A DNA stretch of 59,734 nucleotides, from the NCBI GenBank assembly GCA_021787635.1, contig JAJYLO010000001.1, positions 1 to 59,734 on the forward strand. Direction: 5' to 3'. Made by a program: the position numbers and the translations under genes. This DNA comes from a bacterium. Its GTDB lineage: Bacteria; Patescibacteriota; Microgenomatia; UBA1406; GWC2-37-13. Below are positions 11,187 through 25,317 of this stretch, in pieces. Position 1 is the first letter of the stretch. Every line of letters begins with the position of its first letter. Under the pieces are notes generated by a model, which made no database searches, had not been told where the DNA came from, and saw only the letters and a list, made by a program, of their open reading frames with translations.

Positions 11187-11189
11187 TTT

Positions 11190-13352
11190 ATGAAAAGAAC
11201 AGTTATTTATGGATTATTGGTATTAATCGTTATCTTTAACGCCTATATTTACCGTCAGGAGGTAAATATCCGGCCGGAGGTGAACGATAACAGTTTTCAG
11301 TATACGCTGGTTGATGACGCCAAACATTTATGGCAGCAAATATTCGCCGGTAAATTGTCACCATTTTATTTAGTCGACAGTTTTAACAACCGGTGGGATG
11401 AAGGATTGGCTTTATCCGATTATTACAGCCATTTTCCCCAGGCGGTCATCGGTCTGACCAGTATTGTTACCCATACTGACGCTCATGCTCTTTTCCTTTG
11501 GACAAAATACCTGATGCTTATTTTGCTGCCGGTCATGTTTTTTGCCGGCGCGAAGATCATCGGAATGACCGATTTGGCCGCATTGTTATCCGCCTTTTTT
11601 TCCCAGGCGATTTTTACCAACGGTCTTTACGGCATTGACAGCACCAATTTTTTGTGGCGGGGATGGGGATTGTCATCACAACTGCTGGCGCTTTTCTTTT
11701 TACCGGTGGCGCTGGGATATGGATGGCGATATTTGGGGGGTTCGGGCGGTAAGGGAGGTTTGAGGAAGGCGGTTTTTTTTAATTTCCTGGTGGCCGAGTG
11801 CCATTCGGGGGTATTTTTAATGTTGGTCATAGCATATCCGGTAATAGCGGTAATAAGGGGAATAGGAGACAGAAGGGAATTCAGGGAGACCGGCAAACGG
11901 TTGGTGATATTCGGGGGGTTACTTTTTATCCTTCTCTCATATTTTCTTGTCCCGTATTTTCTCCAGGGCAATTACCGTAATTTTTCTTTCTGGGATCCGG
12001 CCTGGAAATTCAATTCTTTCGGTTTGCAGCAAATCGTCACCTGGTTTATTAACGGTGACCTGTTTGATTTCAACCGGTTGCCGGTATTGACCTTTTTGGT
12101 GTTATTCGGGGTGTTGGCCGGTTTAAAAAGTTTTAAAAGTTTGAAAAGTTCAGAAAGTACCTCGGGATGGCTGGCGGTATTATTTATCGTTTATTTTCTT
12201 CTTTATCTTGGCCGGTCAACGTGGGGAAAAGCGATTGATTTGATTCCCGGAATGAGCGAGTTTCATTTATCGCGGTTTATCGTCATGGTGCAGGTGGTGG
12301 GGGTATATGTGGCGGGGGGGCTAGTCAGCGATATCATCGAAAACCTCACTTCGTTCGGCATCCTAAGTCGTTCAAAATGGGTATCTTCGGTTTCCTCGAT
12401 AATTATTGTCATAATTTCCATCGTAATTGCTTATTATATGGAGCTTCCGGTCGTAAAGTATGCCGCCGAAAATAACGATATGATTGTTGCCTTTAATAAG
12501 CAATACGCCGTCGACTACCTGGATTACCAAAAAATCGCCGCCAAATTGCATTCCTTGCCCTCCGGCCGCGTCTATGCCGGCCGGCCGGGTAATTTCGGCC
12601 GGGATTTTACCGTCGGCGGCGAGCAAGTGTATATGGCCCTGGCGCAGGATGGATTTTATACTCTGGGTAATGCGCCGGAGAGCTGGTCGCCCAACTCGGA
12701 ATCGGACCAGTTTTTTGACGAAAGCCGACCGGAGTTTTACAATTTGTACAATATTCGTTATCTAGTGGTGCCGGAAAGCTACCGACCGCCTAAATTTGCT
12801 CAATTGGTAGCCCAGTCGGGTAAATATTATTTATACCGGGTGTCAACCAGCGGTTGGTTTGATGTCGGCGTCAGCAATCAGGCAGTGACGGTCAAAAAAA
12901 CCAGCCTGATCGATTTTGTTCACCTGTGGTTGTCAAGCATCATGGTGGCCCAAAAGAATTATCCGGAAATTATTTTTGGTCAATCGTCCATTGATCGATC
13001 GTCGCTTTGGAAACAATTTCCGTTGGCCGCCTCAACCTCGGCACCGGCCGTTACTGTCGGGGACGCCCAGTGTGCGTCCCCGACAGATCAATCATATTGC
13101 GCGGTGATTTCCCTGAAAAACGACTGTTCCGACTGTATTATTGTCCTGAAAAACACATATCATCCCAACTGGCAAATTTTTGTGAACGGAAAACAGGCAA
13201 AAGCGGTTCCTGTCTTTCCGTTTTTTATTGGCATCCCGGTGACGAAGGCGGGGGAATATCGAATTGAGGCTATTTATAAGCCGGGTATGGTAAAGGTTGT
13301 TCTTATCTATGCAGGGATAATATTTATTTTGCTTCCGGGCTGGCTTCTTTAG
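11190..13352 (+). CDS. YfhO-like large membrane protein (putative glycosyl/glycan transferase)
   Basis: 720 aa. Many TM spans, a large soluble domain, and a final C-terminal TM (VVLIYAGIIFILLPGWLL). Carries in-frame heptamer and Gly-rich tracts. Confidence 0.5.
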   Translation: MKRTVIYGLLVLIVIFNAYIYRQEVNIRPEVNDNSFQYTLVDDAKHLWQQIFAGKLSPFYLVDSFNNRWDEGLALSDYYSHFPQAVIGLTSIVTHTDAHALFLWTKYLMLILLPVMFFAGAKIIGMTDLAALLSAFFSQAIFTNGLYGIDSTNFLWRGWGLSSQLLALFFLPVALGYGWRYLGGSGGKGGLRKAVFFNFLVAECHSGVFLMLVIAYPVIAVIRGIGDRREFRETGKRLVIFGGLLFILLSYFLVPYFLQGNYRNFSFWDPAWKFNSFGLQQIVTWFINGDLFDFNRLPVLTFLVLFGVLAGLKSFKSLKSSESTSGWLAVLFIVYFLLYLGRSTWGKAIDLIPGMSEFHLSRFIVMVQVVGVYVAGGLVSDIIENLTSFGILSRSKWVSSVSSIIIVIISIVIAYYMELPVVKYAAENNDMIVAFNKQYAVDYLDYQKIAAKLHSLPSGRVYAGRPGNFGRDFTVGGEQVYMALAQDGFYTLGNAPESWSPNSESDQFFDESRPEFYNLYNIRYLVVPESYRPPKFAQLVAQSGKYYLYRVSTSGWFDVGVSNQAVTVKKTSLIDFVHLWLSSIMVAQKNYPEIIFGQSSIDRSSLWKQFPLAASTSAPAVTVGDAQCASPTDQSYCAVISLKNDCSDCIIVLKNTYHPNWQIFVNGKQAKAVPVFPFFIGIPVTKAGEYRIEAIYKPGMVKVVLIYAGIIFILLPGWLL
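12122..12160. repeat. Heptamer tract (AAAAGTT-like) in frame in the YfhO-like gene
   Basis: ttaaaaagttttaaaagtttgaaaagttcagaaagtac encodes LKSFKSLKSSES. Confidence 0.75.
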
Positions 13353-15327
13353 GGAGAGTGATCTTCGGGTTAATTGACGGTGCCGGCGTCGGTAATGTCA
13401 ACTGGCTCGGCTGCGCGCTTTGGGTGGCGGTAGCCCCTTCTTTTGGCAGCATTTTCTTGAATTGCGCCAATTCCTGTGCGGCTTTGTCATAGTCGGTTTT
13501 ATCGGACTTGGGATCGACTAAGGTCAGGACATTTTGCATTTCCGAGGCGGCCAGTTGATAATCTTTTTTCTGGTAAGCGGCCCAGGCAAGATTGTAATGA
13601 GCGTTGGCCCAGTCCTGTTTCAGGCTGGCGGATTGTTCAAATAATTGCTCCGCCTGGTCGTAATTACCCAATGAATAGAAAACTCCGCCCAGATTGAGCC
13701 GGTAAATCGGATTTTGCGGATCAAGGATGATTGCCCGCTGGTAGGCCGATACCGTCCAGGCGTCGGCGCCTTGAGCGACAGACAAAATATTACGATAAAT
13801 AACCGCCAGATTTTCCCAGTTCGCGGCTTTTTGCGGATTTAAAGCAACCGCCGCTTTGGCTTCGGCAATAGCGGCCTGGATGGCTTGAGTGATGGTTTGC
13901 TTATCTTGATTGGAAAGCTTTTTACCCGCTTTGGCGGCAATATTGTTGGCCAAAAGCAAATTCGTCTGGGAAAAATTAATGCGGAAGCGTTCGATGTATG
14001 GATTAATGACGATTGCCTGGCGCTGGTTGTTGTACAGTTCGCCGGCATTATTGGTCATATAGCCGTCAAGGGATTTCTTGAAATAATATTCGGCCAGGTA
14101 GGATTGGCCGGTAAAATAGGCAAGGACACCGACAACGGCGACGCCAATAATGACGATCCCTAAAAACAACGGGATAATTTCCGCTAAGTCAATGGAAGAA
14201 GATTTTATTGTTGAATTATTGGATTGCTGCATTGCTAAGAGAAGGAAAAATAAGAACATGATTGGCAGGGAAACGGGGAAAAAGAGGAGGACTAACAGTA
14301 AATAAATAGTAGATAGCAGTAAGGGGGAGGAAAATAAATGCTTGATTGTTATATTGTTAAATTGTTGTTTAATGACGAGAAATAAAATTAAGACAATGGA
14401 AACTAAACCAAATAAACCGGTTTCCGTAAAAATCTGGAGAATAGTCGAGCGGCTGACGCTAAAGGAATTGATCTGCCACAATGCTGATTGATTGTAATAA
14501 ATATCTTTTACCCGGGTAAACATGCTGGCAAAATTGTCGACGCCGACGCCGAAAAGGGCGGTCAGCGGTTGTTTCAGCGTTTCAACGGCAGCATACCAGC
14601 TAATGCTAAAAGGTGGCAACGTCGGGAACTGTTTATACAGCGAGTAGCCGGTGAGAAGAAGGGCAAGTAAGACAACGACTAAATATCCAGTATTTAGTAT
14701 GGAGTATTTGGTATTTTTATTTTTGATTAAAGATATCACGGCAAGGATAGTAAAGAATCCCAAAAAGAGCACTAGATTAAGCTGGTCGCCCAAAGGGTTA
14801 AAGCCGGGTGCTTTCAGGAACTGGAAATAGGCGGACAGAGAAGCGTTTTTAAAAGGATTGAAAAAGAAAATAATAGAAACAAGCGATAAAAGACTAACCG
14901 ATACCATCATCGTATTTTTCAATTGTTTCATTGCCTGATGATTGCGGGATAGATAAAAATAGAGGATAGCCAATGAAACAATTTCTGCCAGGCCGAAATT
15001 GGGATTTAGGATCGCCTGCACGCGGTTCGGAGAGCTAATAAGGACCGATAAGGCAGTAGCGATGACGAAAATAAGAACCGGGACATCCAGCGGCCCTTTT
15101 TGCCAGACAAGTTTTTTACTGGTTATAAACTGGATCAGGGAGATGAGGATAAGCAGCAAGGCGCCATAAATCAATAAGTAGAGTTTGTTGGTGATAAAAA
15201 ATTCCTGGGTAAGGGGAAGGAAAAAGAGAGGAAAGAGAAATAAAAGAGTATAAAGTATAAAGTATTTGATATTTTGGAGAAATTTTCCCATAAATTTCAG
15301 TGTAAAGAAAGAAGAAAAAAATGTCAA
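13324..15327 (-). CDS. Wzy_C (O-antigen ligase/O-oligosaccharyltransferase-like) membrane protein with C-terminal TPR repeats
   Basis: Polytopic N-part with SRSTILQIFTETGLFGLVSIVLILF (Wzy_C-like). C-terminal TPRs (NLGGVFYSLGNYDQAEQLFEQS, AHYNLAWAAYQKKDYQLAASEM). The track start is TTG at 15327; an ATG (MGKFLQN) at 15291 is an alternative. Confidence 0.65.
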   Translation of the reverse strand: MTFFSSFFTLKFMGKFLQNIKYFILYTLLFLFPLFFLPLTQEFFITNKLYLLIYGALLLILISLIQFITSKKLVWQKGPLDVPVLIFVIATALSVLISSPNRVQAILNPNFGLAEIVSLAILYFYLSRNHQAMKQLKNTMMVSVSLLSLVSIIFFFNPFKNASLSAYFQFLKAPGFNPLGDQLNLVLFLGFFTILAVISLIKNKNTKYSILNTGYLVVVLLALLLTGYSLYKQFPTLPPFSISWYAAVETLKQPLTALFGVGVDNFASMFTRVKDIYYNQSALWQINSFSVSRSTILQIFTETGLFGLVSIVLILFLVIKQQFNNITIKHLFSSPLLLSTIYLLLVLLFFPVSLPIMFLFFLLLAMQQSNNSTIKSSSIDLAEIIPLFLGIVIIGVAVVGVLAYFTGQSYLAEYYFKKSLDGYMTNNAGELYNNQRQAIVINPYIERFRINFSQTNLLLANNIAAKAGKKLSNQDKQTITQAIQAAIAEAKAAVALNPQKAANWENLAVIYRNILSVAQGADAWTVSAYQRAIILDPQNPIYRLNLGGVFYSLGNYDQAEQLFEQSASLKQDWANAHYNLAWAAYQKKDYQLAASEMQNVLTLVDPKSDKTDYDKAAQELAQFKKMLPKEGATATQSAQPSQLTLPTPAPSINPKITLPKEASPEAK

Positions 15328-16157
15328 GGGGTGGCGGGCGGCAATTGCGGTTCGATACGCAGGGCGGTGAGAGTTTGCGTCGCCGTCACGTCCTGGTTAG
15401 TGTAAACGGTAATTTGCATATTCGGCTGAAGATCAGTCAGAGATAATTTTTCCGGCTGGTGCGGAGCCGGTTGTTGGGGACTGGGAAGAGTCACCATTGG
15501 ATTAAAGCGGGAAATTTCGGTATTGGCGGTTACCGTCACCTGATAAGTAATTTCTCTCGCTTTCACTGTCAATGTATTGCCGGCAATGGCAACGATTTTG
15601 CCGGTAAGAGTATTGACAATCGGCGGCAGCCGGATATTGACGGCGGTAAACCGGTTATCGGCCAATGTCCGCAGATCGGTATTGGTGCTGATCGTGATAT
15701 TTTGGCCTTTTTTGATGTCGGAAATAGTTAGTTTAGGGGAAGTAAGGGAGGTGGGAAATCCGCCAGCGGGCGGAGAAGGAAATAAATAAATAACCATCGC
15801 TTCTGGCCGGCTGATTTGGGTGTTTGGCCCGACCGTCACCCGATAGGTTAGCTTTTTTACAATCGAGGTGGAAATGGGAGTGATCGGTCCGGTTGACGGA
15901 TTATTGGGTGTGGGAGGCGTGATGCCCATTTGGTACGGCTGATAATAAATAGTCTGGCTGACGGTGACCGTATTGCCGGCGATATCATCGACCACGCCGG
16001 AAAAATTGGTGACCGGAGAAGTCAGGTATAAAATATCCGGGGAAACGGTAATGGTTGTCGATCGTTTGAACGGCTTGACCTGGGTGAAGAAGAAAATAGC
16101 CAGAAAAATCACGGCGACCAATGCCAGCGCGGCTATTTTTTTACTTTTTGAGCCCAT
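15324..16157 (-). CDS. Secreted/anchored protein with two internal ~120-aa repeats
   Basis: N-terminal TM. Repeat 1 has ..IAGNTVTVSQ..LTYRVTVGPNTQISR..LTISDIKKGQNITISTN. Repeat 2 has ..IAGNTLTVKAREITYQVTVTANTEISR..LSLTDLQPNMQITVYTN. Confidence 0.6.
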   Translation of the reverse strand: MGSKSKKIAALALVAVIFLAIFFFTQVKPFKRSTTITVSPDILYLTSPVTNFSGVVDDIAGNTVTVSQTIYYQPYQMGITPPTPNNPSTGPITPISTSIVKKLTYRVTVGPNTQISRPEAMVIYLFPSPPAGGFPTSLTSPKLTISDIKKGQNITISTNTDLRTLADNRFTAVNIRLPPIVNTLTGKIVAIAGNTLTVKAREITYQVTVTANTEISRFNPMVTLPSPQQPAPHQPEKLSLTDLQPNMQITVYTNQDVTATQTLTALRIEPQLPPATP

Positions 16158-16176
16158 ACTTTAACATTTTAAATTG

Positions 16177-18090
16177 TTATTTTGAGATTTGAATTTTGAG
16201 ATTTGAGATGGTTTCTTTCAGCTGGTTGATTTCCTGCTGTTGTTGATTCACCTGATTCGTTAGATCGTTCAACTTTTTACCCACATCGACGCCGTTGACG
16301 ATGATCTGTTTTGCTTCCAAAAGACCCACTTTGATATGGCCGACAACCGCCTCGGCAAAAGCAGCAATTTGGGTAATGAGATTGCCGTGGATATCTTTAA
16401 CCTGACTGTTTTCATTAATAATTGCGCCACCTTCAGAATTAATATTTATGAACTTCGTAATATGCTGCAGATCAGTTATTTCTGCTCGTTGTGTTTGGAT
16501 CATGGATGTGTAGTCAAATGAGGAAAGCTTGTTTACTTGAGCAGAGATTGTTGCGACATTTTTAGCTAAAGCTTGGATACCAATCAGTGCGACACCAGAA
16601 GGATCGATCGTAGAAATAGCTTTATCCGTACCGTTTAATCCAAAGAGAGAATAGAAATCTTCAGCGACAGGACCGATGTGTTTTGCCGAAGGATCTTCAG
16701 TTTTATAATTCCATTCAGTGATTGGAAGCTGGTTGATCTTTTGTAATATAATATAAGGATTCAGTGCAGTGAAATTCTCTTTGACATCGCGGCTTGAACT
16801 ATTCTGCCAGGTGCTGCCATCGCTATAGGCACCTCCAGAAAGTTGAAAAAGATGGGAAGGACTCGTCGTCCCGATGCCGACTTTGCCACCACCATCTTGT
16901 AAGATCAAGTTTCCCCACGCGGATCCCGGTTTCAATGCATTAATAACACCAAAATTATTTGTGTCATTATAGCCGATTCTCACCCCATCTTGACCTGTAC
17001 CTGTAATAATTCCTGATCCAAAAATCGCGTGTTGAGAATCTGTATCATGGTTTATCCAGACAGGTAAGACAACTTGAAGTTTTCCTGCCGGACTCGTCGT
17101 CCCTATCCCGACGTTGCCGCTGCTGCCGTTATTTAATATAATTTTTGAACCATCCAAATACAGTGGTAAATAACCTGGGGAAGTTCGGTTATATGCTCGC
17201 AAGTTAGCTTCAATGCCATCCCAGGTTAATTCGGCTCCTGATCCACTGGTTGGGGCAACTTGGTTTATAGCCCTTATGGTTCCATTCACGTCGAGCTTTG
17301 CATAAGGTGCCGTCGTCCCGATGCCGACATTGCCACTTCCTGTAATACGCATGAAGATAGATTGATTAAAGGTGGTATTGTTGGAATGGAAGAAGTCCAT
17401 ATTACCGGTATTTGAAGAATTGGAAGCCATTCCAATACCCCAAGCTTCTCTAGTGGGATCACCAAGTACCCAGGATCCTGTTGCAAATGAGGCATTATTG
17501 CTTATGTCACCATATTTTGTAGTTAATGGATCAAAAGCTAATAATTCCAAGGAGCTGACTGTACCAAGAGAAATACGGGCATTATTTGTAGAGTAATTAA
17601 CCACTTGAAGAGCGTGCGCCGGAGTCGTCGTCCCGATACCGACGTTGCCGATAACACCAAGATCAGAGGATAACAGAACTGCATTCGAGAATGTTACACC
17701 AGGATCTGTAAGCGGTGGGGTGCTACCACCACCTTGAGTTCTGCTAACTGTTAGATTTCCAGAATTGTTAACTGTAAAAGATTCATAATTAGAAGTGTCA
17801 TAGCCAAGTCTGAGTTGTTCGGTAGTGGATAAAATGTGGAGATTAGCTCCTGGACTTGTCGTCCCGATGCCGACGTTGCCGTTAACATAGAGTTTGGCCG
17901 TGCCGCCGGTGACGTCGCCGCCGATGCCGACTTGATTAAAATTTTGGATGCCGCCTAAATGGGCATCGATGGTTAAATTGCCGGGATGGCCTATTCCGAG
18001 GGCCGGTACCGCTCTAAAAAGTTGAACAGCAATGAAACTGATAGTAATAAAAAAAAGAGTGATTAAAACTAGACGGATGGTAGTTTTCAT
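16177..18090 (-). CDS. Tail-fibre-like surface protein with GNVGIGTT repeats and a C-terminal peptidase-S74 intramolecular chaperone domain
   Basis: Signal/TM at the N-terminus. At least 6 copies of GNVGIGTT(S/A)P. SSSRDVKENFTALNPYIILQKINQLPITEWNYK..HIGPVAEDFYSLFG..VALIGIQAL matches the endosialidase/tail-fibre chaperone (S74) pattern, followed by a coiled coil. Confidence 0.8.
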   Translation of the reverse strand: MKTTIRLVLITLFFITISFIAVQLFRAVPALGIGHPGNLTIDAHLGGIQNFNQVGIGGDVTGGTAKLYVNGNVGIGTTSPGANLHILSTTEQLRLGYDTSNYESFTVNNSGNLTVSRTQGGGSTPPLTDPGVTFSNAVLLSSDLGVIGNVGIGTTTPAHALQVVNYSTNNARISLGTVSSLELLAFDPLTTKYGDISNNASFATGSWVLGDPTREAWGIGMASNSSNTGNMDFFHSNNTTFNQSIFMRITGSGNVGIGTTAPYAKLDVNGTIRAINQVAPTSGSGAELTWDGIEANLRAYNRTSPGYLPLYLDGSKIILNNGSSGNVGIGTTSPAGKLQVVLPVWINHDTDSQHAIFGSGIITGTGQDGVRIGYNDTNNFGVINALKPGSAWGNLILQDGGGKVGIGTTSPSHLFQLSGGAYSDGSTWQNSSSRDVKENFTALNPYIILQKINQLPITEWNYKTEDPSAKHIGPVAEDFYSLFGLNGTDKAISTIDPSGVALIGIQALAKNVATISAQVNKLSSFDYTSMIQTQRAEITDLQHITKFININSEGGAIINENSQVKDIHGNLITQIAAFAEAVVGHIKVGLLEAKQIIVNGVDVGKKLNDLTNQVNQQQQEINQLKETISNLKIQISK

Positions 18091-18137
18091 AGAATTACTG
18101 GATTTAGTTTAAGAATAATCCTTAATAAAGGAAAAAG

Positions 18138-19328
18138 TCAAGGGGGGCATTTGCCGGGATTGTCTTGACAACATTCGGTGCGGGTGCAATAAAATTTATT
18201 CGGTTGGCAGACGCTAGGGTCAAAATACCCGTTACAGTCGCCGCCAATATTCAGGCACCATTTTCCGCAGGACGGCGTCTGGGGAAACTGGTTGGGGCTG
18301 GAAACAGCATACTGGTAATTATGATCACTGTTGGTGCCGCAGCCGCCGACGCCATTACATCCCAGCTGGGAAATGATCGGGTCGCTGGTATTGTTGAGGC
18401 TACTATAAATAATGTATGATTTGGGGCACATGTTGGTGCAGTTGATTGTCGGACAATAGCCGGTGCAGGTGGTCGAATCGACCTGGTAAAGATATTCTTT
18501 GGTGGCATGTTGCGGGTCACAGGGCAGCTGGCTTAGATAAGGGGTAAGAGATGGTGAAGACGATTCGGTGCCGCAAATATAACAGGTTTGCCACCGGGAA
18601 ATTTGATAGCCCCCCACCCCGGTACAGATATTGCTAAATCCCGCCGGTGTCGGTACCGGCTTTTGGTAACAAATCTGGTCCGGCCGGGGATAGCAGCTGT
18701 GATCATTGTAATAATCCTCAAGGACTTTTCGGAGAGTGTCAAGGTCGTGCTTCCGGCGTGCGTCTTGCGCTTTGGCAATTTGCTGCCAGGGATTTAAAAG
18801 CCACAAGGTGGCGGCGGCGAGGAGGGCAAGGAGGGCGATGACGATCGTCAGCTCGAGGAGGGTGAAACTGCTTCGGGTAATAGATTTAGAAGATGGAAGA
18901 TGGAAGATGAGAGATGGAAGATGGAAGATGAGAGATGGAAGATGAGAGATGGAAGATTGAAGATAACGAATTAATCCTATTAATAATTTGCCGATTTCAT
19001 CAGCCTCTTTCTGTAATTGGGAATAGGTTCTGCTATCTAAATAATATAGATCTTTAGCTAGTAAAAGATGATATTTTGTTTCCGCTAACGAACCCTTAGC
19101 TGTATAAAGAAATTGGAGATATTCTTTGCGAGATTTCTTTTCATTACCTTCGACGATATTAGCGGAAATTGAAGAAGCGGATCTTCTAAGTTGATCAACC
19201 AGCAGGTACTTTTCTTCTTTAGGAAACTTTTTAGTAATTTGGTATATTGACAGAACAAACTGATGAGCTTTTTGCCAAACGATCAATCTCTCAAACTTAT
19301 TTAATTTTTTATTATCTTCCATCTTCAA
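18138..19328 (-). CDS. Chimeric ORF: four-helix-bundle protein (23S rRNA IVS / S23p / Avd-like) joined in frame through a heptamer-repeat linker to a Cys-rich type IV pilin-like protein
   Basis: Residues 1-124, LIVWQKAHQFVLSIYQITKKFPKEEKYLLVDQLRRSASSISANIVEGNEKKSRKEYLQFLYTAKGSLAETKYHL, fit the four-helix-bundle family. The linker is SHLPSLIFHLPSLIFHLPSS. Then comes a prepilin motif TRSS/FTLLELTIVIALLALLAAA and a ~230-aa domain with more than 20 Cys. Confidence 0.75.
   Translation of the reverse strand: MKMEDNKKLNKFERLIVWQKAHQFVLSIYQITKKFPKEEKYLLVDQLRRSASSISANIVEGNEKKSRKEYLQFLYTAKGSLAETKYHLLLAKDLYYLDSRTYSQLQKEADEIGKLLIGLIRYLQSSISHLPSLIFHLPSLIFHLPSSKSITRSSFTLLELTIVIALLALLAAATLWLLNPWQQIAKAQDARRKHDLDTLRKVLEDYYNDHSCYPRPDQICYQKPVPTPAGFSNICTGVGGYQISRWQTCYICGTESSSPSLTPYLSQLPCDPQHATKEYLYQVDSTTCTGYCPTINCTNMCPKSYIIYSSLNNTSDPIISQLGCNGVGGCGTNSDHNYQYAVSSPNQFPQTPSCGKWCLNIGGDCNGYFDPSVCQPNKFYCTRTECCQDNPGKCPP
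18892..18961. repeat. Ten tandem heptamers GATGRRA (plus strand) forming the linker between the four-helix-bundle and pilin parts
   Basis: Read directly: gatggaa gatggaa gatgaga gatggaa gatggaa gatgaga gatggaa gatgaga gatggaa gattgaa. Confidence 0.9.
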
Positions 19329-19344
19329 TCTTTAATCTTCTATC
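19314..19344. repeat. 4.4 tandem heptamers ATCTTYN, the reverse complement of the 18892-18961 unit
   Basis: atcttcc atcttca atcttta atcttct atc. Covers the TTG/ATG start of the four-helix-bundle ORF and abuts the stop of the giant gene. Confidence 0.85.
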
Positions 19345-22300
19345 TAATTAATGATCAGCCAATTAAATTGTATATTGTTTATCACCGGTTTATCAATAGT
19401 AATGATAAAGTATGGCTTATCGCTGACGATCTTTTGGCTGACCGTCAACGGCGGGGAGCCAGGCGTGGTGGGGGTAATGTAGATCAGGGAATCGGCCTTC
19501 ACACTACTATTATATATAAGTATCTCGGTGGAGTTCGCCGGCAAAATGCCGACACCCGCCGATTGTGACTTCGTCTCAATGGCCGGGGCATTGATCCCGT
19601 TCTGGACCAGATTATCAGGCGCGGCAATCACCGCCGCCGACGAGGTGGCGTCCATATATTTATTGCCAATTGCTAAATTGTTGATTGTTAAATTGTTGAA
19701 TTGAGCCGATCCCGAAGCATCAATAGATGCGACCGTGTCTCCCACCGGATTCTTGATCTGCAGCCCCTGGGCGATGATTTCGCCTTTGGTCGTGATTGTC
19801 CCGTCGCGGGCGATGACGACGCCGCCGTCAAACAAGGTGATCGTATTAAACGCCGACAGTTTCAAATCGGAGGCGAGGGAGAGAATGGAATTATTTTCAA
19901 TAAACGTCTGGCCGATAAGCATGGAACCGGCGACGGAAACGTTGTAAAGATTAGATTGGCCGGTGACGGTCAGGGAGTCGGATTTTAGATCTAAGATGGA
20001 AGATGGAGGATTGGAAGATGAAGAACTTCCATCTGTTATCTTCGATCCTCCACCTAATGTAATATTCTGGTAATAATTTGCATTCGGCAACGGCTGATTT
20101 TGAATTTTGGCGAGCAACGATTGGATATCGTTCACGTTCGATGATAATGTATCGAGCGACGACGATTGGGAAGCGACATTATTTTCCAACTGATTGATAT
20201 TTTCCGACCGGACATTTTGGGCGACAAGAGTGCCGGAAACAGTCGCCGATTGAGCAACGAGTGTCCCGGAAATGGTCGCATTTTGCGCAGAGAGCGTACC
20301 GCTGAATGAGGCATTGCCGGCAGCGTCAATACTGGCGACAGTGGCATTATTGAGGCCTCTAATGATAATTTTGGCAAGTTTGCCTTTATCGTTAGGGGGT
20401 AGGGAGTTGGGAGTAGGTTGTAGGTTAATCGTCAAATCTCCATTTTGTGGTGCAATTTCGTTCGTCTGTATTTTATTTAGTTGTGCCGAGCCGGTGGCGA
20501 CAATGTCTTTGGTTTCGGCAATCGGCGAAACGACGGATTGTGAACCGAGAACCGCCCGGATTCTGTTATCGATATAATCCTGAAGGCTTTTGCCGGCGAT
20601 AGTAATATTGCCGCTGGTGACATTGAGGCTGTCGGTAACGATATTTTGAGCATTGACCAACCCGGCCGTCAATTTGCCAATAACTGCTTGGGCGTAGGCG
20701 CCGATATCGTCGACGATAGTGCCCGTGTCAAACTTGACGGTATAACCGTTATTATTTAAATTCCCGTCATATACCAGCTGGGGCGTGCTGACGTTGCCGG
20801 AGGAATCGACGTTCAGCCGGCTCATGTCCGGATCGTTGATGGTCAGGCCGCCAACATCCGATGACGAGCGGGTATTTTTCCACTGGGCGTAGTCGAAGCG
20901 GGGCGCGGTCAGCCGGTAGCTGACGACGGTCGGCCGCGAGGCGTAAATAACCAATTGGAAATTGGCCGGGTCGACCGTATACCAAGTGCGGGCATTGGTG
21001 GTCGGCGTCAGGAGCGGAATCAGGTTTTGCATCGTATTGCGCAAATTGGTGACTTTGGCAAAAAGCCACAGGTCGGACGCTTTATCGGCATTATTGAAAT
21101 TGATGATATGGCGGTAGCCGACGCCGGCGACGTGCTCGTTGACGGCGACGGTGCCGGTCGTTTCTTCTTTGACGCCGGTCATTGACGGGTTATAAGTGGC
21201 GTATTTTTCGCCATTAATGACGTACGGCGGATCGATCGTGCCGGCGTCGATTTTGCCATCGCAGTTGGCGACGCCGGAAGAATAAGTGGTGTTGACGCAC
21301 AGGGTGGCACTGGGGGTAGCAGTGCTATTTATTATCAGCGTGCTGCCGGAGGCAGCAGTGATTGTCGGGCCGTTGGTCGGGCCGCCGGGGGTATTGTCTT
21401 CCAATATCATGTTCCAGTTGGTATCGGTGTTTTGGGCATATGAGTGTAACATGTTTATATAGCTCATGCCGGCCGGATCAAGATAGCGAGTATTGTCGGA
21501 ATTGTCGTAATACTTTTCAGCGTTGATACTGCCGCTGCCGACGTCCAATCTTTGTGTCGGGCTGGTTACGCCGATCCCCACATTACCGCTGACATAAAGT
21601 TCATTACTTTGTGGTAAGGCATTTGCCGGTAATGAGCCGATGGCGACGGAGCCGTTGACATCCAGTTTATCCAAGGGAGCGGTGGTGCCGATGCCTAAAT
21701 TACCGGTAATATCGCTATTGCCCGATACTTCGAGTTTATTGGCCGGCGCGGTCGTTCCAATGCCCACATTGCCGTTGTTTAAGACTGTCAGCCCCCTAGT
21801 CGTACCGTCGGCCGCCAGTGTGGAAAAGATATTGATGGGGGTAGCGGTAATCACCCACTGGTCATTTAAAGTATGGCCGGTTGTGGCTCCAAAAGTAATC
21901 GTTACTCCATTAGTCAGCGTCTGGGCCGATCCGGTGATGGCGACGCCTGTCGTCCATGATCCCGCGCCTTTTTGCCACTTGAAGGTATCCGGTGTCCCTG
22001 TCGCGTCGATGACGACGGTATAGGTCTGGGCAGTAGTATCGGTACCGGTATAAGTGCCGCCGGAAGTGGCATCATTTAAGCCGGTGCCGGTAAAGACGGC
22101 GCTGCCGATACTGCCCGATCCTTTGACATCCAATTTGTATGCCGGTGAAATGGTGCCGATGCCGACGTTGCCACTGCTATCTATCAACATCCGATACGCT
22201 GTTGCTGTACTGTCATAAATACCAAAAGCTCCGCTATTAGCTCCCAATGTACCAAGACTCTGTACTAACCAGTCCCGGGAAGCTTTAAGTTCCAAATTAG

Positions 22301-23918
22301 AATTATAGGAAGTGTTCGCATTTTCGACTAAACTAGTTAAATTTGCGGTAGAATTTTGATAAACATGTAACTTTTGACTCGGCCCCGTCGTCCCAATTCC
22401 CACATTGCCGGAAACATATAACTCATTACTTTGTGGTAAGGCATTTGCCGGTAATGAGCCGATGGCAGCTGAACCATTCACGTCCAGCTTGTTTAATGGG
22501 GTAGTGGTGCCGATGCCGACGTTGCCATTTTGGTCTATTCTCATTCTTTCAGATACGCCAGAGACTCCTGTAGCGAAAGTCAAACTTCCAGTTGAATCGT
22601 TCCCAATATAATTATTGTTTGTTGCTGAAGCATAATAGGTGTAGATCTTGTTTCCTATACTGTTTCCAGTAGTAATATTTCCACGTACGTCTAGTGTCTG
22701 AACTGGACTCGTCGTCCCAATCCCGACGTTGCCGCCGTTTTTGACGTATAAATTATCGCTACCAGCGGTTTGTAATCTTAAATTCCCGCTTTCCGAAGCA
22801 TTGAGGATGATGTCGCCGGTCGACGCCGACTGGATGGTAACTGCCGCGGCGCTTGTCAAAGCGAAAGTGGCGCTAGTCGCTGTCGAGCGGATGCCGGGCG
22901 CCGCCGCCGCCAGTAGCAGATCACCATCTTTATTGATAAAGGGAACGTTGCTGGTATTTCCACCAGGCGGCAGGCCCTGAAGGGTCGCGGCATTCATCGC
23001 ATATCCCACGTTCGCAATTTGTTGGCGCGGAGTCATTTCCGCATCGCTTGCCACTTGTATACTCATATAAACATTGGCATTTTCGGTAAAGACCGATGGA
23101 TCGATTTGGCTCCCGCAGACCGACTGGGGTGGAGTGGGGGAATAGCCCGATCCGCCAATGAGAACAGAAAAGATTCCGTCCGTATCGGGAGTGATAGAAC
23201 AAGCACCGGTGTCATAAAGCATGGTGCCGGCTGCGGGGGCATTGTACAGGCGGAAATCGACATTGACGGCCGAATTGATCGGATTTTTAGTGCTGTCGGT
23301 GAGGCGGCCCTGGAAGGAAAGAATCCGGCCAGCGGTAACCGGCGCAATAGGGTAAGCAAACGTCCGTGGACTTTTGTTAAAGAATTGATTGTAAAGTCCC
23401 GCACCGAGGACAGCGAGGAAGATTATAACAATGGTAAAGGCGACGTATTGTTGCGGTGACAATTCCTGTAGGGACGCGGTTTCTGCGCCCTTCATATTTT
23501 GTGTACGGGTGGTTGACGGGTCGGGAGACCCGGCCCCAACATTTTTGATGTTCAATAACGGAATCCGTTTCAATATCCCGAAAATGAATGATTTAATTTT
23601 ATTGGCCGATTCGAACTGGTCGATTGACGGCACGGTATCGATGATCATTCTGGCTTCAGATCGGGCTTGTTCCGTGTTCCGCGTTTTTCCGCGTTGATTT
23701 CCGCGTTGTTCGGCGGTGGCGCTGGAAAGATAATTAGCGATTAGTGGTCTTATCTGCTGATAGGAGGCAGTATCTATAAACCCCTTCCCGTGAGCCCAAT
23801 CTAAAAACTTATCCACCGACCGTAATTTCTTGGCCACAGTTGAGGAAGATTCTCCACGATCGTGAAGAGTTTGGATATAGCCTCGAATTGTTTCCGGTCT
23901 AATCGATTTAAAATTCAT
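19344..23918 (-). CDS. Giant (1524 aa) membrane-anchored surface protein: N-terminal integrase SAM-like (core-binding) domain, one TM, extracellular fibre with GNVGIGTT repeats
   Basis: The N-terminus ETIRGYIQTLHDRGESSSTVAKKLRSVDKFLDWAHGKGFI resembles the Xer/phage-integrase N-terminal domain. TM is YVAFTIVIIFLAVLGAGLY (~aa 158-176). Repeats such as LYVSGNVGIGTTGPSQ follow. Confidence 0.8.
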   Translation of the reverse strand: MNFKSIRPETIRGYIQTLHDRGESSSTVAKKLRSVDKFLDWAHGKGFIDTASYQQIRPLIANYLSSATAEQRGNQRGKTRNTEQARSEARMIIDTVPSIDQFESANKIKSFIFGILKRIPLLNIKNVGAGSPDPSTTRTQNMKGAETASLQELSPQQYVAFTIVIIFLAVLGAGLYNQFFNKSPRTFAYPIAPVTAGRILSFQGRLTDSTKNPINSAVNVDFRLYNAPAAGTMLYDTGACSITPDTDGIFSVLIGGSGYSPTPPQSVCGSQIDPSVFTENANVYMSIQVASDAEMTPRQQIANVGYAMNAATLQGLPPGGNTSNVPFINKDGDLLLAAAAPGIRSTATSATFALTSAAAVTIQSASTGDIILNASESGNLRLQTAGSDNLYVKNGGNVGIGTTSPVQTLDVRGNITTGNSIGNKIYTYYASATNNNYIGNDSTGSLTFATGVSGVSERMRIDQNGNVGIGTTTPLNKLDVNGSAAIGSLPANALPQSNELYVSGNVGIGTTGPSQKLHVYQNSTANLTSLVENANTSYNSNLELKASRDWLVQSLGTLGANSGAFGIYDSTATAYRMLIDSSGNVGIGTISPAYKLDVKGSGSIGSAVFTGTGLNDATSGGTYTGTDTTAQTYTVVIDATGTPDTFKWQKGAGSWTTGVAITGSAQTLTNGVTITFGATTGHTLNDQWVITATPINIFSTLAADGTTRGLTVLNNGNVGIGTTAPANKLEVSGNSDITGNLGIGTTAPLDKLDVNGSVAIGSLPANALPQSNELYVSGNVGIGVTSPTQRLDVGSGSINAEKYYDNSDNTRYLDPAGMSYINMLHSYAQNTDTNWNMILEDNTPGGPTNGPTITAASGSTLIINSTATPSATLCVNTTYSSGVANCDGKIDAGTIDPPYVINGEKYATYNPSMTGVKEETTGTVAVNEHVAGVGYRHIINFNNADKASDLWLFAKVTNLRNTMQNLIPLLTPTTNARTWYTVDPANFQLVIYASRPTVVSYRLTAPRFDYAQWKNTRSSSDVGGLTINDPDMSRLNVDSSGNVSTPQLVYDGNLNNNGYTVKFDTGTIVDDIGAYAQAVIGKLTAGLVNAQNIVTDSLNVTSGNITIAGKSLQDYIDNRIRAVLGSQSVVSPIAETKDIVATGSAQLNKIQTNEIAPQNGDLTINLQPTPNSLPPNDKGKLAKIIIRGLNNATVASIDAAGNASFSGTLSAQNATISGTLVAQSATVSGTLVAQNVRSENINQLENNVASQSSSLDTLSSNVNDIQSLLAKIQNQPLPNANYYQNITLGGGSKITDGSSSSSNPPSSILDLKSDSLTVTGQSNLYNVSVAGSMLIGQTFIENNSILSLASDLKLSAFNTITLFDGGVVIARDGTITTKGEIIAQGLQIKNPVGDTVASIDASGSAQFNNLTINNLAIGNKYMDATSSAAVIAAPDNLVQNGINAPAIETKSQSAGVGILPANSTEILIYNSSVKADSLIYITPTTPGSPPLTVSQKIVSDKPYFIITIDKPVINNIQFNWLIIN
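19994..20054. repeat. Heptamer-built imperfect hairpin lying in frame inside the giant gene
   Basis: agatggaagatggaggattggaagatgaag aa cttccatctgttatcttcgatcctccacc. Arms ggaggat/atcctcc and gatgaag/cttc(c)atc. Same GAAGATG unit as around the four-helix-bundle ORF. Confidence 0.7.
23670..23716. repeat. Irregular tandem TTCCGCG(TT) repeats in frame in the giant gene's cytoplasmic part
   Basis: ttccgtg ttccgcg tttttccgcg ttgatttccgcg ttgttcggcgg encodes (minus strand) AEQRGNQRGKTRNTEQ. Confidence 0.7.
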
Positions 23919-24024
23919 AGTTACTTTTTAAAGCGACCGAAGATCAGTTTTTCCGCCGGGTCGACTTTAAGCCCTTGATTTGTAATTAAAAACTGATGAT
24001 TTAAAATTTTGAATTGAGTAGTTT

Positions 24025-24064
24025 TATATATATTAAATACGCGCGCGCGCGAAAAAATATATAT
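24025..24064. other. (TA)n-flanked alternating (CG)6 tract upstream of the giant gene
   Basis: tatatatattaaata cgcgcgcgcgcg aaaaaatatatat. Confidence 0.7.
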
Positions 24065-24129
24065 CTGGCGGATAGGGTATAGTACTAAGGTTTTCACTAT
24101 TTTCATGATCCAGGATTTAAGATTTATGA

Positions 24130-24318
24130 TTAACGAAAAGCCAATCGCCGGCGTAAACCGAATCGCCGCTGGCTGCTTATTTTATCTTTTGGTCTGGATT
24201 CGATCACGGCCGAATCGTAAGGGCTGCCTTCCGCCGCCGGATCAAATAACAATTTGAGCGCGTTTAGCGCATATTTAGGGCTTTTTGAAGCCCAAGAGAT
24301 CATAGAAACAGTTTTCAT
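24130..24318 (-). CDS. Possible small hypothetical protein (62 aa)
   Basis: ORF lies directly downstream of the SAM-like gene on the operon strand. No recognisable motif. Confidence 0.25.
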   Translation of the reverse strand: MKTVSMISWASKSPKYALNALKLLFDPAAEGSPYDSAVIESRPKDKISSQRRFGLRRRLAFR

Positions 24319-24324
24319 ATAGTT

Positions 24325-24780
24325 TTATGAATTTATAATGGTGAAAAACTCGTTGAGATCATCTAAATCGTCACTTTGCGCCTCCGTGTCGGATTGGAAT
24401 TGAATCAAGGTGTTAGATAATGATATTGATCCAACGTTACCGATTTTTTTCGCCACATTTTCCTTTATCCAGCCTTGGGTGATGCAGAAAGAACAAAACT
24501 TTCGCATTGTTGAGAGGCGACGATTAATGGTTTTGGGAGGAATACGATTAGTGGTTAGATAATTTTTATATTCGGCGATTGTTTCGGCGGTTAACAATTT
24601 TTGTAGGAGCAAGGCTTCCTCGTCCTTATTTACTACATTTTGTTGCGTATTTGTTATCCACCCGGCGAAATGCCGGAAATCAGACAGGTAATTCTTGATT
24701 GAAACCGGTTTGGCATTTCCCGCAAAAAGGTAATTCCGAAACGGGGCCTCAAAATTATAAAGATTATACGGGTGAACCAT
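24325..24780 (-). CDS. Stand-alone integrase SAM-like (core-binding) domain protein, no catalytic domain
   Basis: SIKNYLSDFRHFAGWI..TAETIAEYKNYLTTNRIPPKTINRRLSTMRKFCSFCITQGWIKEN. Only 151 aa. First gene of the minus-strand operon. Confidence 0.7.
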   Translation of the reverse strand: MVHPYNLYNFEAPFRNYLFAGNAKPVSIKNYLSDFRHFAGWITNTQQNVVNKDEEALLLQKLLTAETIAEYKNYLTTNRIPPKTINRRLSTMRKFCSFCITQGWIKENVAKKIGNVGSISLSNTLIQFQSDTEAQSDDLDDLNEFFTIINS

Positions 24781-25303: not shown

Positions 25304-25317
25304 TATATTAGGGTTAT

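Follow-up and report, generated by a model that had tools for sequence, protein, structure and literature searches.

The window, which is the whole analysed stretch of 59,734 nucleotides (59.7 kb), carries a cluster of six co-directional genes on the minus strand at 13324–24780, all of which are real open reading frames (ORFs). In reading order, they encode a 151-aa SAM-like domain protein (24325–24780), a giant fibre of 1524 aa (19344–23918), a fusion of a four-helix bundle (4HB) with a pilin (18138–19328, 396 aa as ORF), a 637-aa fibre (16177–18090), a 277-aa DUF5666-like protein (15324–16157) and a WaaL-like/TPR membrane protein (13324–15327, 667 aa when started from TTG). The fusion gene likely starts from the ATG at 19322, giving 394 aa, and the ATG at 15291 gives 655 aa for the WaaL-like/TPR protein; both are the starts called in L001.

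The original prediction described a tightly packed operon. The six co-directional genes and the intergenic gaps of 15, 47 and 19 nt agree with this description, but a spacer of about 400 nt (23919–24324, minus strand) separates the SAM-like gene from the giant gene, and the 4-nt overlap before the last gene exists only with the TTG start. Two small ORFs of 62 and 61 aa in the spacer are unsupported and gave no family matches in profile searches; the equivalent spacer of L011 contains a free four-helix-bundle ORF. A sigma-70-like element, TTGACA-18-TATTAT (24789–24818, minus strand), with 11 of 12 consensus matches, is located 9 nt upstream of the 151-aa gene and is the top promoter-like site within 13000–25400. 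By this consensus match, it is a putative promoter of the cluster.

Genomic context and conservation

Other genes of the window encode NusG, L1, LeuRS, a class I (Trp/Tyr-type) tRNA synthetase, TGT, NadE, ComEC, ComEA and a split transketolase. Immediately upstream are sugar-nucleotide and glycosyltransferase genes, and ComEA and ComEC are 8–10 kb away from the cluster. Absence of phage genes had been predicted, and the flanking-gene check set beforehand agreed: the 48 ORFs scanned across the full window include no gene for a capsid, terminase, portal, tail-tube, baseplate or catalytic integrase protein. Genes for a pilus-assembly ATPase, a platform protein or a prepilin peptidase were likewise not found within the 59.7-kb window, and no close relatives were found among IMG/VR viral contigs.

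A pilin-profile scan of GTDB genomes returned 37 loci. All of those with informative titles belong to Microgenomates-group, Roizmanbacteria, Gottesmanbacteria or Patescibacteria MAGs, as expected from the predicted CPR organism. The order giant, pilin, WaaL-like/TPR was found in at least 25 of the 37 loci, and the core order of SAM-like domain, giant fibre, Cys-rich pilin and WaaL-like/TPR recurs in about 30 Microgenomates/Roizmanbacteria genomes. L004 is a gene-for-gene match, flanks included, with 26–61% amino-acid identity, and the cluster keeps its chromosomal position and its flanks across divergent genomes. The S74 fibre and DUF5666 genes stand between the pilin and TPR genes only in the window, in L004 and partly in L006; they are accessory inserts outside the conserved core. 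The cluster is a cellular chromosomal locus, and the organism is a Microgenomates (Roizmanbacteria-like) CPR bacterium. The prediction of a cellular locus is thus upheld by the housekeeping DNA of the window and by the synteny check across many Microgenomates genomes.

The giant fibre and its SAM-like domain

The 151-aa protein matches Phage_int_SAM_5 with 33.2 bits (cut-off 22.3), and a SAM_1 match was also found. Against XerC, it covers only model positions 12–95 of 295, with 35.9 bits versus a cut-off of 335; the protein stops at residue 151, and the tyrosine-recombinase catalytic domain (R-H-R-Y) is absent. In L006, L007, L019, L027 and L029, the SAM-like domain and the giant fibre form one protein; in L004, L011 and L036, the domain has a gene of its own. 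The 151-aa protein is the giant fibre's cytoplasmic N-terminal domain in detached form. The SAM-like assignment in the original prediction was correct, but what was taken for a mini-protein is a domain split off from the giant, with which it is fused in five loci. It is neither a separate regulator nor an integrase.

The giant itself starts with half a SAM-like domain (aa 3–58), followed by a transmembrane (TM) helix (aa 153–181), a conserved membrane-proximal domain and seven GNVGIGT beta-helix repeats (aa 396–784). This repeat shaft was placed at 21567–22733 (minus strand) by the repeat positions and corresponds to DNA repeat families D2–D5. Beyond the repeats lie a central domain that is not of the S74 type and, at the C-terminus, about 500 aa of conserved sequence. 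The predicted GNVGIGT repeats were recovered in both fibres, seven in the giant and five in the 637-aa protein, and 11 copies were detected at DNA level.

The giant matches PHROG tail-fibre families. In phmmer searches against PDB, it matched the Bdellovibrio MAT fibres 8OND (1.3e-6), 8OL4, 8OML, 8ON4 and 8OJN, and the 637-aa protein matched 8OND (3.2e-8) and 8OML (2.5e-5); for neither protein did phmmer return a PDB match outside the Bdellovibrio MAT fibres. Orthologues of the giant are present in about 25 loci. Those of L019, L027 and L021 contain an internal canonical S74 motif (SDxxxK), and that of L007 matches the S74 domain in an alignment that begins after the motif. In some orthologues, the internal S74 is followed by about 500 more residues. 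The membrane-proximal domain of the giant, used as query, returned only seven proteins, CPR or unnamed. The repeat-fibre family comprises 41,257 clusters at E ≤ 1e-3, many of them in giant proteins.

The S74 fibre and the DUF5666-like protein

The 637-aa fibre is signal-anchored, and its five GNVGIGT repeats begin right after the membrane anchor. They are followed by a C-terminal Peptidase_S74 domain and then a coiled coil. The S74 assignment in the original prediction passed the profile check: PF13884 matched with 33.3 bits (cut-off 22) at aa 432–482, covering profile positions 1–52 of 58. This putatively autoproteolytic chaperone core is located at 16645–16797 (minus strand). Its motif is SSRDVK, in which Ser432 and Lys437 are correctly spaced and position 2 is Ser, not Asp. 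Following the behaviour of the S74 family, the fibre is predicted to cleave itself before Ser432. Phage S74 tail-fibre genes matched aa 431–535 weakly in tblastn. Together with the PHROG matches and the S74 domain, these matches bear out the predicted use of tail-fibre building blocks.

The 277-aa protein has an N-terminal TM helix and an internal repeat. The secreted two-repeat protein that had been predicted is recognized here as two DUF5666-like repeats, with a score at the cut-off (27.5 versus 27 bits). Orthologues of its gene were found in L004, L006 and L034.

The pilin and the module fused to it

The pilin part of the fusion gene (18138–18866, minus strand) encodes a Cys-rich type IV pilin-like protein with a class III signal motif. 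The mature pilin would begin at F155 as S/FTLLELTIVIALL, where the slash marks the cleavage site, with the canonical motif including Glu at +5 and the hydrophobic helix. In the cleavage context, TRSS/FTLLELTIVIALLALLAAATLWLL, the residue at -1 is small, Phe and Glu occupy +1 and +5, and the hydrophobic helix spans about 20 residues. The N_methyl profile (PF07963) scored 18.4 bits, below its cut-off of 21.2, and a weak GspG match was found; PF07963 is on record for several pilin orthologues. Pilin identity is therefore confirmed at the level of the motif only. The residue at -1 is Ser in the window pilin versus the usual Gly, and all members of the pilin family have G, A, S or C at this position. 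F1, T2, E5 and seven cysteines do not vary between fused and unfused pilins, and F1, T2 and E5 are the same in 16 family members. The family is restricted to the Microgenomates group.

Stand-alone pilin orthologues carry MKK[GAS] leaders of 4–5 residues. The window pilin has no such short basic leader; its leader is 152–154 residues long and is a folded four-helix bundle. This 4HB module (TIGR02436/23S_rRNA_IVP), together with a translated repeat linker of HLPSLIF units, is located at 18867–19322 (minus strand). It matches PF05635 with E = 2.6e-40 and 137.4 bits (versus 33.8) over profile positions 1–105 of 106, and TIGR02436 with 134 bits (cut-off 24). The predicted 4HB/pilin chimera is thus real in its 4HB part and a pilin by motif, and it is better described as an IVS-type ORF placed ahead of a pilin. 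The GC content is 0.34 in the module versus 0.53 in the pilin part.

Inverted repeats of 32–39 nt flank the module. The left arm (19314–19352), made of (GAAGATG)-type units, includes the ATG of the module and is 77–88% complementary to the right array (18884–18966), which has 10.9 copies of 7-nt units and is translated within the linker. The arms pair in both the MFE and the centroid folds, and the repeat 13-mer occurs 7 times versus 0.09 expected. The last 25 codons of the module contain no ATG, GTG or TTG, and the same absence of a canonical start within 25 codons of F+1 was observed in six fusions. At -5, the window fusion has an ATT codon. Another assembly has a 21-nt indel in the module region, with the frame kept.

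Full-length fusions are kept down to 43% identity (P0002–P0007). Short 4HB, long 4HB and PDDEXK_3 modules all occur among orthologous pilins, and other orthologues have no module. In L007 and at a Flexistipes pilin, the module is a separate overlapping ORF, and a Flexistipes pilus locus repeats this pattern of modules at a pilin. In L010 and L016, a GTG at -4 would give a leader of native length, and L003/L037 have an ATG at -10. The 4HB is a selfish ORF of the rRNA-IVS type that was inserted in frame and replaced the normal 4–5-residue leader of the pilin. This entire rRNA-insert-type protein apparently serves the pilin as an oversized leader peptide.

The WaaL-like/TPR membrane protein

The last gene of the cluster is a constant partner downstream of the pilin gene and comes directly after it in at least 25 loci. 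It encodes a polytopic domain (aa 1–440) and a TPR domain (aa ~460–625) identified by TPR profile matches. The AF2 model of aa 1–440 has a pLDDT of 87.3 and a pTM of 0.89. With this model, Foldseek matched WaaL (7TPG_B) in PDB with E = 2.1e-3, probability 1.0 and TM-scores of 0.47/0.51 over 448 columns, and the next match had E = 0.8 and TM < 0.2. The membrane domain matches only WaaL and is modelled as a distant WaaL O-antigen-ligase-like fold.

A Wzy_C and TPR protein had been predicted. The TPR part was found, but the Wzy_C part was reduced to the WaaL-like fold: Pfam gave no Wzy_C (PF04932) match at E < 0.1 in the window protein. Wzy_C matches were found in 3 of 21 orthologues (best 9.2e-5), and PF04932 is on record for 5 of the 120 homologues listed. 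No invariant or near-invariant His was found in an alignment of 61 orthologues, and the window protein has Gln298 where most orthologues have His. Known Wzy_C-type enzymes need a conserved His, and the Wzy_C-family O-oligosaccharyltransferases PglL, PglS, TfpO and TfpM glycosylate pilins (PMC9829042).

Discussion

Among characterised proteins, the fibres are most closely related to the mosaic adhesive trimeric (MAT) fibres of Bdellovibrio bacteriovorus, such as Bd2133 and Bd3182, which are surface-displayed adhesins for prey recognition (PMC10769870). Both are cellular and phage-tail-fibre-like, and their beta-helix shafts with capping-loop repeats are homologous by sequence. In both, the C-terminus is an S74 chaperone in some members and a different domain in others, each genome has several paralogues, and the architecture is mosaic. 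In contrast to MATs, the fibres here are anchored by an N-terminal TM helix in a CPR bacterium, and CPR bacteria are monoderm. The giant also has a cytoplasmic SAM-like domain that is undescribed for MATs, the S74 domain of some giant orthologues is internal with about 500 residues beyond it, and the fibre genes form part of a conserved pilin locus. MATs have a defining beta-rich domain of about 130 aa right after the signal peptide, for which the 637-aa protein would have no room; the MAT likeness of the fibres concerns the shaft sequence. Phage S74 fibres and tailspikes, such as the K1F endosialidase and the T5 L-shaped fibre, share the S74 domain and the Ser...Lys dyad with the 637-aa protein, and phage 'chaperone of endosialidase' genes match it weakly in tblastn (32–38% identity over about 100 residues). 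Unlike these, the fibre here has no virion context, and its predicted released C-terminal piece is about 205 residues long including the coiled coil.

PglL homologues usually adjoin candidate target genes, at least in the account of PMC3643930. The cluster resembles the pilA-tfpO/pilO, tfpM and pglL pairs, as far as these are described in PMC9829042 and PMC3643930, in that a gene for a polytopic protein of the O-antigen-ligase fold lies directly behind a type IV pilin gene (at least 25 genomes). Glycan-synthesis genes are nearby here as well. However, the window protein differs from the PglL/TfpO type in its lack of a Pfam Wzy_C match, in its C-terminal TPR of about 200 residues and in that the required His is not invariant. 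The window pilin lacks a C-terminal Ser/Thr acceptor of the kind seen in TfpO substrates. The 4HB module belongs to the same protein family as the ORFs of rRNA intervening sequences (23S_rRNA_IVP/TIGR02436), including those of CPR rRNA insertions (PMC11270868), and its match is full-length. Both have inverted repeats able to close a long stem, are AT-richer than their surroundings and are patchy among orthologous sites. In contrast to rRNA insertions, the module here sits in an operon of protein-coding genes, precisely at the 5' end of a prepilin gene; it is read through in frame into the pilin and is not excised from a structural RNA.

A prophage remnant or domesticated phage-tail cassette, with the fibre, integrase-like and Avd-like genes as phage leftovers, would explain the PHROG tail-fibre matches, the phrog_1 'integrase' and 'Avd protein of DGR' matches, the S74 domain and the weak phage tblastn matches. 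The phage similarity, however, is only 25–40% and covers only parts of the protein in tblastn, the SAM-like domain is the cytoplasmic end of a fibre in other genomes, and structural and packaging genes and a catalytic integrase are missing from the 48 scanned ORFs. The core order recurs in about 30 genomes and the cluster is therefore not a prophage; the constant place and flanks in divergent genomes and the IMG/VR result also speak against one. This reading is already largely refuted and is very improbable. DGRs are common in CPR bacteria and target surface proteins. If the 4HB were an Avd protein, the locus could be a DGR target in which a fibre or pilin tip is hypermutated, and a bAvd Pfam match (1.2e-11) and phrog_3206 ('Avd protein of DGR') point in this direction. 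But the Avd equivalog NF033474 gave 53.2 bits against a cut-off of 80, whereas the generic TIGR02436 gave 134 bits. No reverse transcriptase was found in the 48 ORFs scanned across the window, and there is no TR/VR-like pair, the direct repeats being GNVGIGT units and one internal 154-nt duplication. A PDDEXK_3 module also occupies the same place in orthologous pilins, and a DGR is hardly to be expected here.

The 4HB/pilin fusion might also be functionless, with the pilin inactivated, or started independently at a non-canonical or internal codon so that the open frame is incidental. The Ser at -1 and the ATT at -5 would allow this, as would the GTG at -4 in L010 and L016, the ATG at -10 in L003/L037 and the separate overlapping module ORFs in L007 and a Flexistipes pilin. 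Against it, three module types are open-framed across orthologues of 43–73% identity, every invariant pilin residue is kept, the 4HB matches nearly the full Pfam model (1–105 of 106), the population-level indel keeps the frame, and ATG, GTG and TTG are all absent within 25 codons of F+1 in the six fusions. This reading is thus unlikely. Surface filaments for another use, such as a cell coat, adhesion to surfaces or particles with biofilm formation, or an accessory of a DNA-uptake pilus, are a slightly better but still doubtful candidate. The repeat-fibre family is very widespread and therefore unlikely to be restricted to symbionts, ComEA and ComEC are nearby, and the cytoplasmic SAM-like domain of the fibre is of DNA-binding type. 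However, those relatives of the fibres that have been characterised are all adhesins for prey recognition, and the pili of cultivated CPR bacteria bind host cells (PMC11880426).

The reading that we favour, with some reservation, is that this lineage-conserved Microgenomates chromosomal locus builds cell-surface filaments, which are likely adhesive. The giant would be anchored N-in by its one TM helix, with the SAM-like helical domain facing the cytoplasm, and would project a trimeric beta-helical shaft of the phage-tail-fibre/Bdellovibrio-MAT kind, trimerisation being assumed. The 637-aa fibre would fold through its C-terminal S74 chaperone, which should then cut itself off before Ser432. The 4HB module and the pilin would be translated as one polypeptide. 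Since the class III signal is kept (basic residues, small -1 residue, F-T-L-L-E), a prepilin peptidase is expected to cut between S154 and F155, so that the module stays cytoplasmic and a normal mature pilin is released. The WaaL-fold/TPR protein may act as a modifying enzyme on the pilin or the fibres, with glycosylation as the probable reaction, or may help to install them.

According to PMC11623550, cultivated Patescibacteria attach to their hosts through type IV pili. The pili of Saccharibacteria and Mycosynbacter likewise come from CPR bacteria with pilin genes, and those pili bind hosts. In contrast, the locus here is from a different CPR lineage, has a different, Cys-rich pilin family and has no assembly genes in the window. 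The fibres and the pilin are known kinds of parts, and the fused leader is the unusual feature of the locus. The most likely role of the cluster would be adhesion to a host cell or a surface, and host attachment is a reasonable analogy with the Bdellovibrio MAT fibres and the Saccharibacteria pili.

Gene organisation and conservation of the cluster

Six substantial ORFs lie on the minus strand within 13324–24780. They encode a 151-aa SAM-like protein (24325–24780), a 1524-aa giant fibre (19344–23918), a four-helix-bundle/pilin protein of 396 aa (18138–19328; 394 aa from the ATG at 19322), a 637-aa S74 fibre (16177–18090), a 277-aa DUF5666-like protein (15324–16157) and a membrane/TPR protein of 667 aa (13324–15327; 655 aa from the ATG at 15291). 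About 400 nt, containing two unsupported small ORFs, follow the first gene, and the intergenic gaps in the cluster are 15, 47 and 19 nt. The top promoter-like site of the region is located immediately upstream of the first gene. These positions, gaps and the promoter-like site agree with the co-directional layout of the original prediction, whose observation is confirmed as a whole and whose interpretation, a host-attachment apparatus built from a pilin, tail-fibre-like proteins and a Wzy_C/TPR enzyme, is supported in part. In the AT-rich intergenic region between the first gene and a divergent Big_1-domain gene (25318–25731, plus strand), a 17-nt tandem repeat (24972–25037, 3.9 copies, 92% match) was found, which may be a regulatory or phase-variable element.

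Related loci were collected by a pilin-domain profile search of the GTDB species genomes, which gave 37 loci, and ORFs were called in all of them and searched with the proteins of the window. All informatively titled loci come from Microgenomates-group, Roizmanbacteria, Gottesmanbacteria or Patescibacteria MAGs. About half of the related loci are TPA assemblies titled 'uncultured Gammaproteobacteria bacterium'; these titles look like placeholders or mislabels, because the gene content matches the Microgenomates loci. The gene order recurs among these loci: the conserved core order is SAM-like domain, giant fibre, pilin and polytopic/TPR protein, and the polytopic/TPR gene immediately follows the pilin gene in at least 25 loci. 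The closest locus, L004, matches gene for gene, flanks included, at 26–61% identity. The S74 fibre and DUF5666 genes between the pilin and the TPR protein are accessory, being present only in the window, in L004 and partly in L006. The 637-aa protein was also found on two other assemblies, one of which is GCA_027331625.1.

The SAM-like domain and the fibre proteins

In profile searches the predicted SAM-like protein of 151 aa matched tyrosine recombinases in their SAM-like N-terminal domain alone, without the catalytic domain. A second, partial copy of this domain is located at residues 3–58 of the giant fibre. The domain is a gene of its own in the window, L004, L011 and L036, and is joined to the N-terminus of the giant, before the transmembrane helix, in L006, L007, L019, L027 and L029. 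Because it is fused ahead of that helix elsewhere, the domain is read as the cytoplasmic end of the fibre rather than as the remnant of an integrase.

The 637-aa protein contains a Peptidase_S74 domain above the Pfam cut-off, with Ser432 and Lys437 in place, and as a member of this family it is predicted to cleave itself. The Pfam profile was required for this assignment, since phmmer with the S74 region against the PDB returned no significant match. GNVGIGT repeats occur seven times in the giant and five times in the 637-aa protein, and both match PHROG tail-fibre families, so the tail-fibre building blocks that had been proposed for the cluster are present. The two-repeat protein was also recovered: the 277-aa protein carries two DUF5666-like repeats after its membrane anchor. 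Within the giant gene, a 154-nt internal duplication (21551–21704 and 22373–22526, 76% identity), encoding '...GSLPANALPQSNELYVSGNVGIG...', looks like a recent repeat expansion of the shaft.

Giants with an internal S74 domain were found in L019 (6589–9957), L027 (384–5483), L021 (1–2715) and L007 (1644–9266). The first three have the canonical motif (SDxxxK); the L007 giant matches the S74 domain too, but its alignment begins past the motif. The internal domain precedes a conserved C-terminal region of about 500 aa. The giant of the window has a different domain at this place, which indicates that the fibres are mosaic. If the internal S74 cleaves, the conserved C-terminal region of about 500 aa would be released instead of making up the fibre tip.

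In sequence searches against the PDB, the fibres matched only the mosaic adhesive trimeric (MAT) fibres of Bdellovibrio bacteriovorus (8OND (Bd2133), 8OML, 8OJN, 8OL4 and 8ON4). MATs are trimeric adhesins of cellular origin that resemble tail fibres, are displayed on the surface and end in S74 or alternative tips; they function in prey recognition (PMC10769870) and are a direct precedent for the idea of cellular attachment fibres; by this likeness, the fibres of the cluster may be trimeric as well. The membrane-proximal domain of the giant, used as a query for the MAT N-terminal domain, retrieved only seven uninformative proteins. Among cluster representatives, a search with the 637-aa protein gave 41,257 relatives (E ≤ 1e-3), of which many are giants 2,000–7,000 residues long. 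The fibres thus belong to an already known family, and as fibre building blocks are very common in metagenomes, finding them in a cellular genome is not surprising in itself.

A four-helix-bundle module fused ahead of the pilin

The 396-aa ORF opens with a complete four-helix-bundle domain (PF05635, E = 2.6e-40; TIGR02436, 134 bits). It is followed by a linker derived from a 7-nt tandem repeat and by a canonical class III (prepilin) signal, which reads TRSS, the predicted cut, then FTLLELTIVIALL... The predicted four-helix-bundle/pilin chimera is therefore borne out for the bundle and the class III motif, but the Pfam N_methyl match is slightly below the cut-off. The GC content of the bundle part is 0.34, versus 0.53 for the pilin part. 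The bundle part is flanked by inverted GAAGATG-type arrays of 32–39 nt (77–88% complementary), and a 13-mer of these arrays occurs seven times against 0.09 expected. In the predicted fold, whose overall z-score is only −1.84, the inverted arms pair into a stem. An AT-rich ORF bracketed by inverted arrays is the anatomy of the rRNA intervening-sequence ORF, a family reported inside rRNA insertions of CPR bacteria (PMC11270868).

The fusion is more than a peculiarity of a single assembly. Module/pilin fusions of full length were found at 66, 50, 49, 48, 47 and 43% identity, and another assembly differs in the repeat linker by an in-frame indel of 21 nt. The module ahead of orthologous pilins is a short four-helix bundle, a long one or a PDDEXK_3 module, each inside its own inverted arrays. 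Pilin parts sharing 70% identity can have different modules, showing that module turnover is faster than divergence of the pilin. L007 has its module as an ORF of its own, and the stop of that ORF overlaps the native MKKG start. About 25 orthologous pilins stand alone with leaders of just 4–5 residues, MKK[GAS]. The residue at −1 is small in every pilin, and the invariant pilin residues are retained in the fusions. The spacers of orthologous loci also gather other small ORFs, free four-helix-bundle and apparently RayT/Y1-transposase-like (L017 4239–4781 and 9407–9967; L003 3766–4485; L011 3804–4184 and 15248–15610; L013 6021–6389; L025 4839–5270); for the RayT/Y1-like calls, the L003 ORF alone has a Pfam Y1_Tnp match and the L017 pair was assigned by eye. 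The operon appears to be a sink for selfish modules of the rRNA-insert type.

A similar arrangement was found in an MSHA-like pilus locus of Flexistipes sp. (GCA_036172515.1; L043, 4528–7164), from a phylum unrelated to that of the window, where four-helix-bundle modules precede two pilin genes. The first of these is an ORF of its own that overlaps the start of the pilin gene, and the 38-aa leader of this pilin is extended through the translated repeat arm of the module (SHHLPISLPHSLTIS...KRG, cut, FTLIEL). The second is fully fused to its pilin in frame. One locus thus shows three states: a module ORF of its own that overlaps the pilin start, a pilin leader lengthened by translation of the repeat arm, and complete fusion.

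As a route of pilin expression, removal of the module from its transcript by an RNase III-type activity was considered. In six fusions a canonical start codon is absent within 25 codons of Phe+1, and this route is unlikely because the excised pilin message would be left without a start codon. On the simplest reading, translation runs through the module into the pilin, which would then be freed by the prepilin peptidase. A diversity-generating retroelement/Avd origin of the module was rejected, as no reverse transcriptase is among the 48 ORFs scanned across the window, no TR/VR pair was found, and the match to the Avd model is under its cut-off.

The membrane/TPR protein has a WaaL-like fold

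The last protein of the cluster combines about 12 hydrophobic segments with a TPR domain at its C-terminus. Its predicted Wzy_C domain gave no match in Pfam or NCBIfam, where only TPR matches were obtained. Phmmer against the PDB likewise returned TPR matches only, and a 21-sequence profile of the membrane domain found nothing among PDB sequences. Homologues are numerous (358 at E ≤ 1e-5), and few of those listed have Wzy_C on record; the domain was weakly matched in 3 of 21 orthologues, with the protein of the window unmatched. With the full-length model as query, TPR proteins dominated the fold search. When the AlphaFold model of the membrane domain (residues 1–440, pLDDT 87.3) was used, the only PDB match was the WaaL O-antigen ligase 7TPG (E = 2.1e-3, TM ~0.5), and the next matches were at noise level. 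The Wzy_C call, although not matched by sequence, is therefore right at the level of the fold, and the TPR part stands.

Known Wzy_C enzymes need a histidine (PMC9829042), whereas no histidine is invariant in the family alignment of the membrane/TPR protein. A pilin gene with an adjacent gene for a Wzy_C-type O-oligosaccharyltransferase is a known pairing (PMC9829042, PMC3643930). From this pairing and the WaaL-like fold, our best guess is that the protein would glycosylate the pilin or the fibres.

Cellular origin and neighbourhood of the locus

The scan of 48 ORFs across the window found NusG, ribosomal protein L1, two tRNA synthetases, TGT, NAD synthase, ComEC, ComEA, a split transketolase and PaaX/Cas2-like proteins. 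Also among the 48 are sugar-nucleotide and glycosyltransferase genes, which form a block directly upstream of the cluster. None of the 48 encodes a capsid, terminase, portal, tail or catalytic integrase protein. The likeness of the fibres to phage tail fibres, which could point to a prophage, is distant (25–40% over parts), and no close relatives were found in IMG/VR. The content of the window, the synteny and the IMG/VR result exclude a prophage origin for practical purposes, and the locus is cellular, as had been proposed from the lack of phage structural genes. Rfam and tRNA scans of the window gave no matches.

A 137-aa secreted Big_1/invasin-like protein is encoded divergently beside the cluster with two membrane proteins (311 and 337 aa) without Pfam matches (25318–27699). 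The three genes hold this position in the divergent genomes L004, L007, L011 and L019, and may be part of the functional unit of the cluster. More polytopic membrane proteins are encoded around it (9417–13352 and 29218–30867), among them a 589-aa GT87/ALG6-like protein with an NPCBM domain, a second polytopic/TPR protein (549 aa) and a 720-aa protein whose gene is convergent with the WaaL-like gene, an adjacency kept in L036; they suggest a large envelope-glycosylation neighbourhood. At the end of the window, a collagen-triple-helix repeat protein (58332–59657, DNA repeat period 9 nt) and the adjoining 853-aa M23 peptidase/MG2-domain protein (55787–58348) are likely another surface or host-interaction pair. 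PaaX_M/Cas2-like proteins are encoded at 30914–31648 and 39105–39713; no CRISPR array and no other cas genes were found in the window.

Discussion

The cluster probably encodes a conserved surface-filament system. Its parts would be a giant MAT-like fibre that is anchored in the membrane and carries a cytoplasmic SAM-like domain, a second, accessory fibre matured by its S74 domain, a Cys-rich pilin dedicated to the system, and a WaaL-fold/TPR partner. Its likely role, by analogy both with MATs and with pili of cultivated Patescibacteria, is adhesion to a host or a surface. Of this picture, the gene content, the synteny and the cellular origin are established by the analysis, and trimerisation of the fibres, S74 cleavage, processing by the peptidase, glycosylation and the adhesive role are inferred.

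For the modules we tentatively propose, as a possible but somewhat less probable account, that selfish ORFs of the rRNA-insert type repeatedly enter the 5′ ends of prepilin genes and survive as in-frame leaders removed by the peptidase. Four-helix-bundle or PDDEXK_3 ORFs with inverted repeat arrays would insert exactly at the 5′ end, for which the conserved pilin N-terminus may be the homing site, and would be read in frame as a folded 'leader' 130–200 residues long. The prepilin peptidase would cut at the retained class III site, leaving the module protein to the cytoplasm and a normal mature pilin to the membrane. Because this cut would free both, a host processing enzyme would render the insertion harmless, and removal of the leader would be the protein-level counterpart of RNA excision of the rRNA insert.

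The literature searched contains no description of the conserved Microgenomates locus architecture, of a cytoplasmic SAM-like domain on a fibre, of four-helix-bundle/pilin fusions, or of recurrent in-frame rRNA-insert-type modules as giant prepilin leaders, and no tail-fibre-like protein was found in the CPR literature searched. What lessens the surprise is that each component belongs to a known kind and that fibres of this family are widespread.

To our knowledge, the Microgenomates have no cultivated member. The locus is a concrete, lineage-wide candidate surface apparatus in this group, in which a giant, membrane-anchored MAT-like fibre is joined by a dedicated pilin and a WaaL-like partner, and it is tied to the adhesins of Bdellovibrio, the only cellular tail-fibre adhesins that have been characterised. 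The modules before the pilins suggest an undescribed lifestyle of selfish ORFs within protein-coding operons and suggest that prepilin peptidases can handle folded leaders of more than 150 residues. The giant-leader modules give a sharply testable hypothesis.
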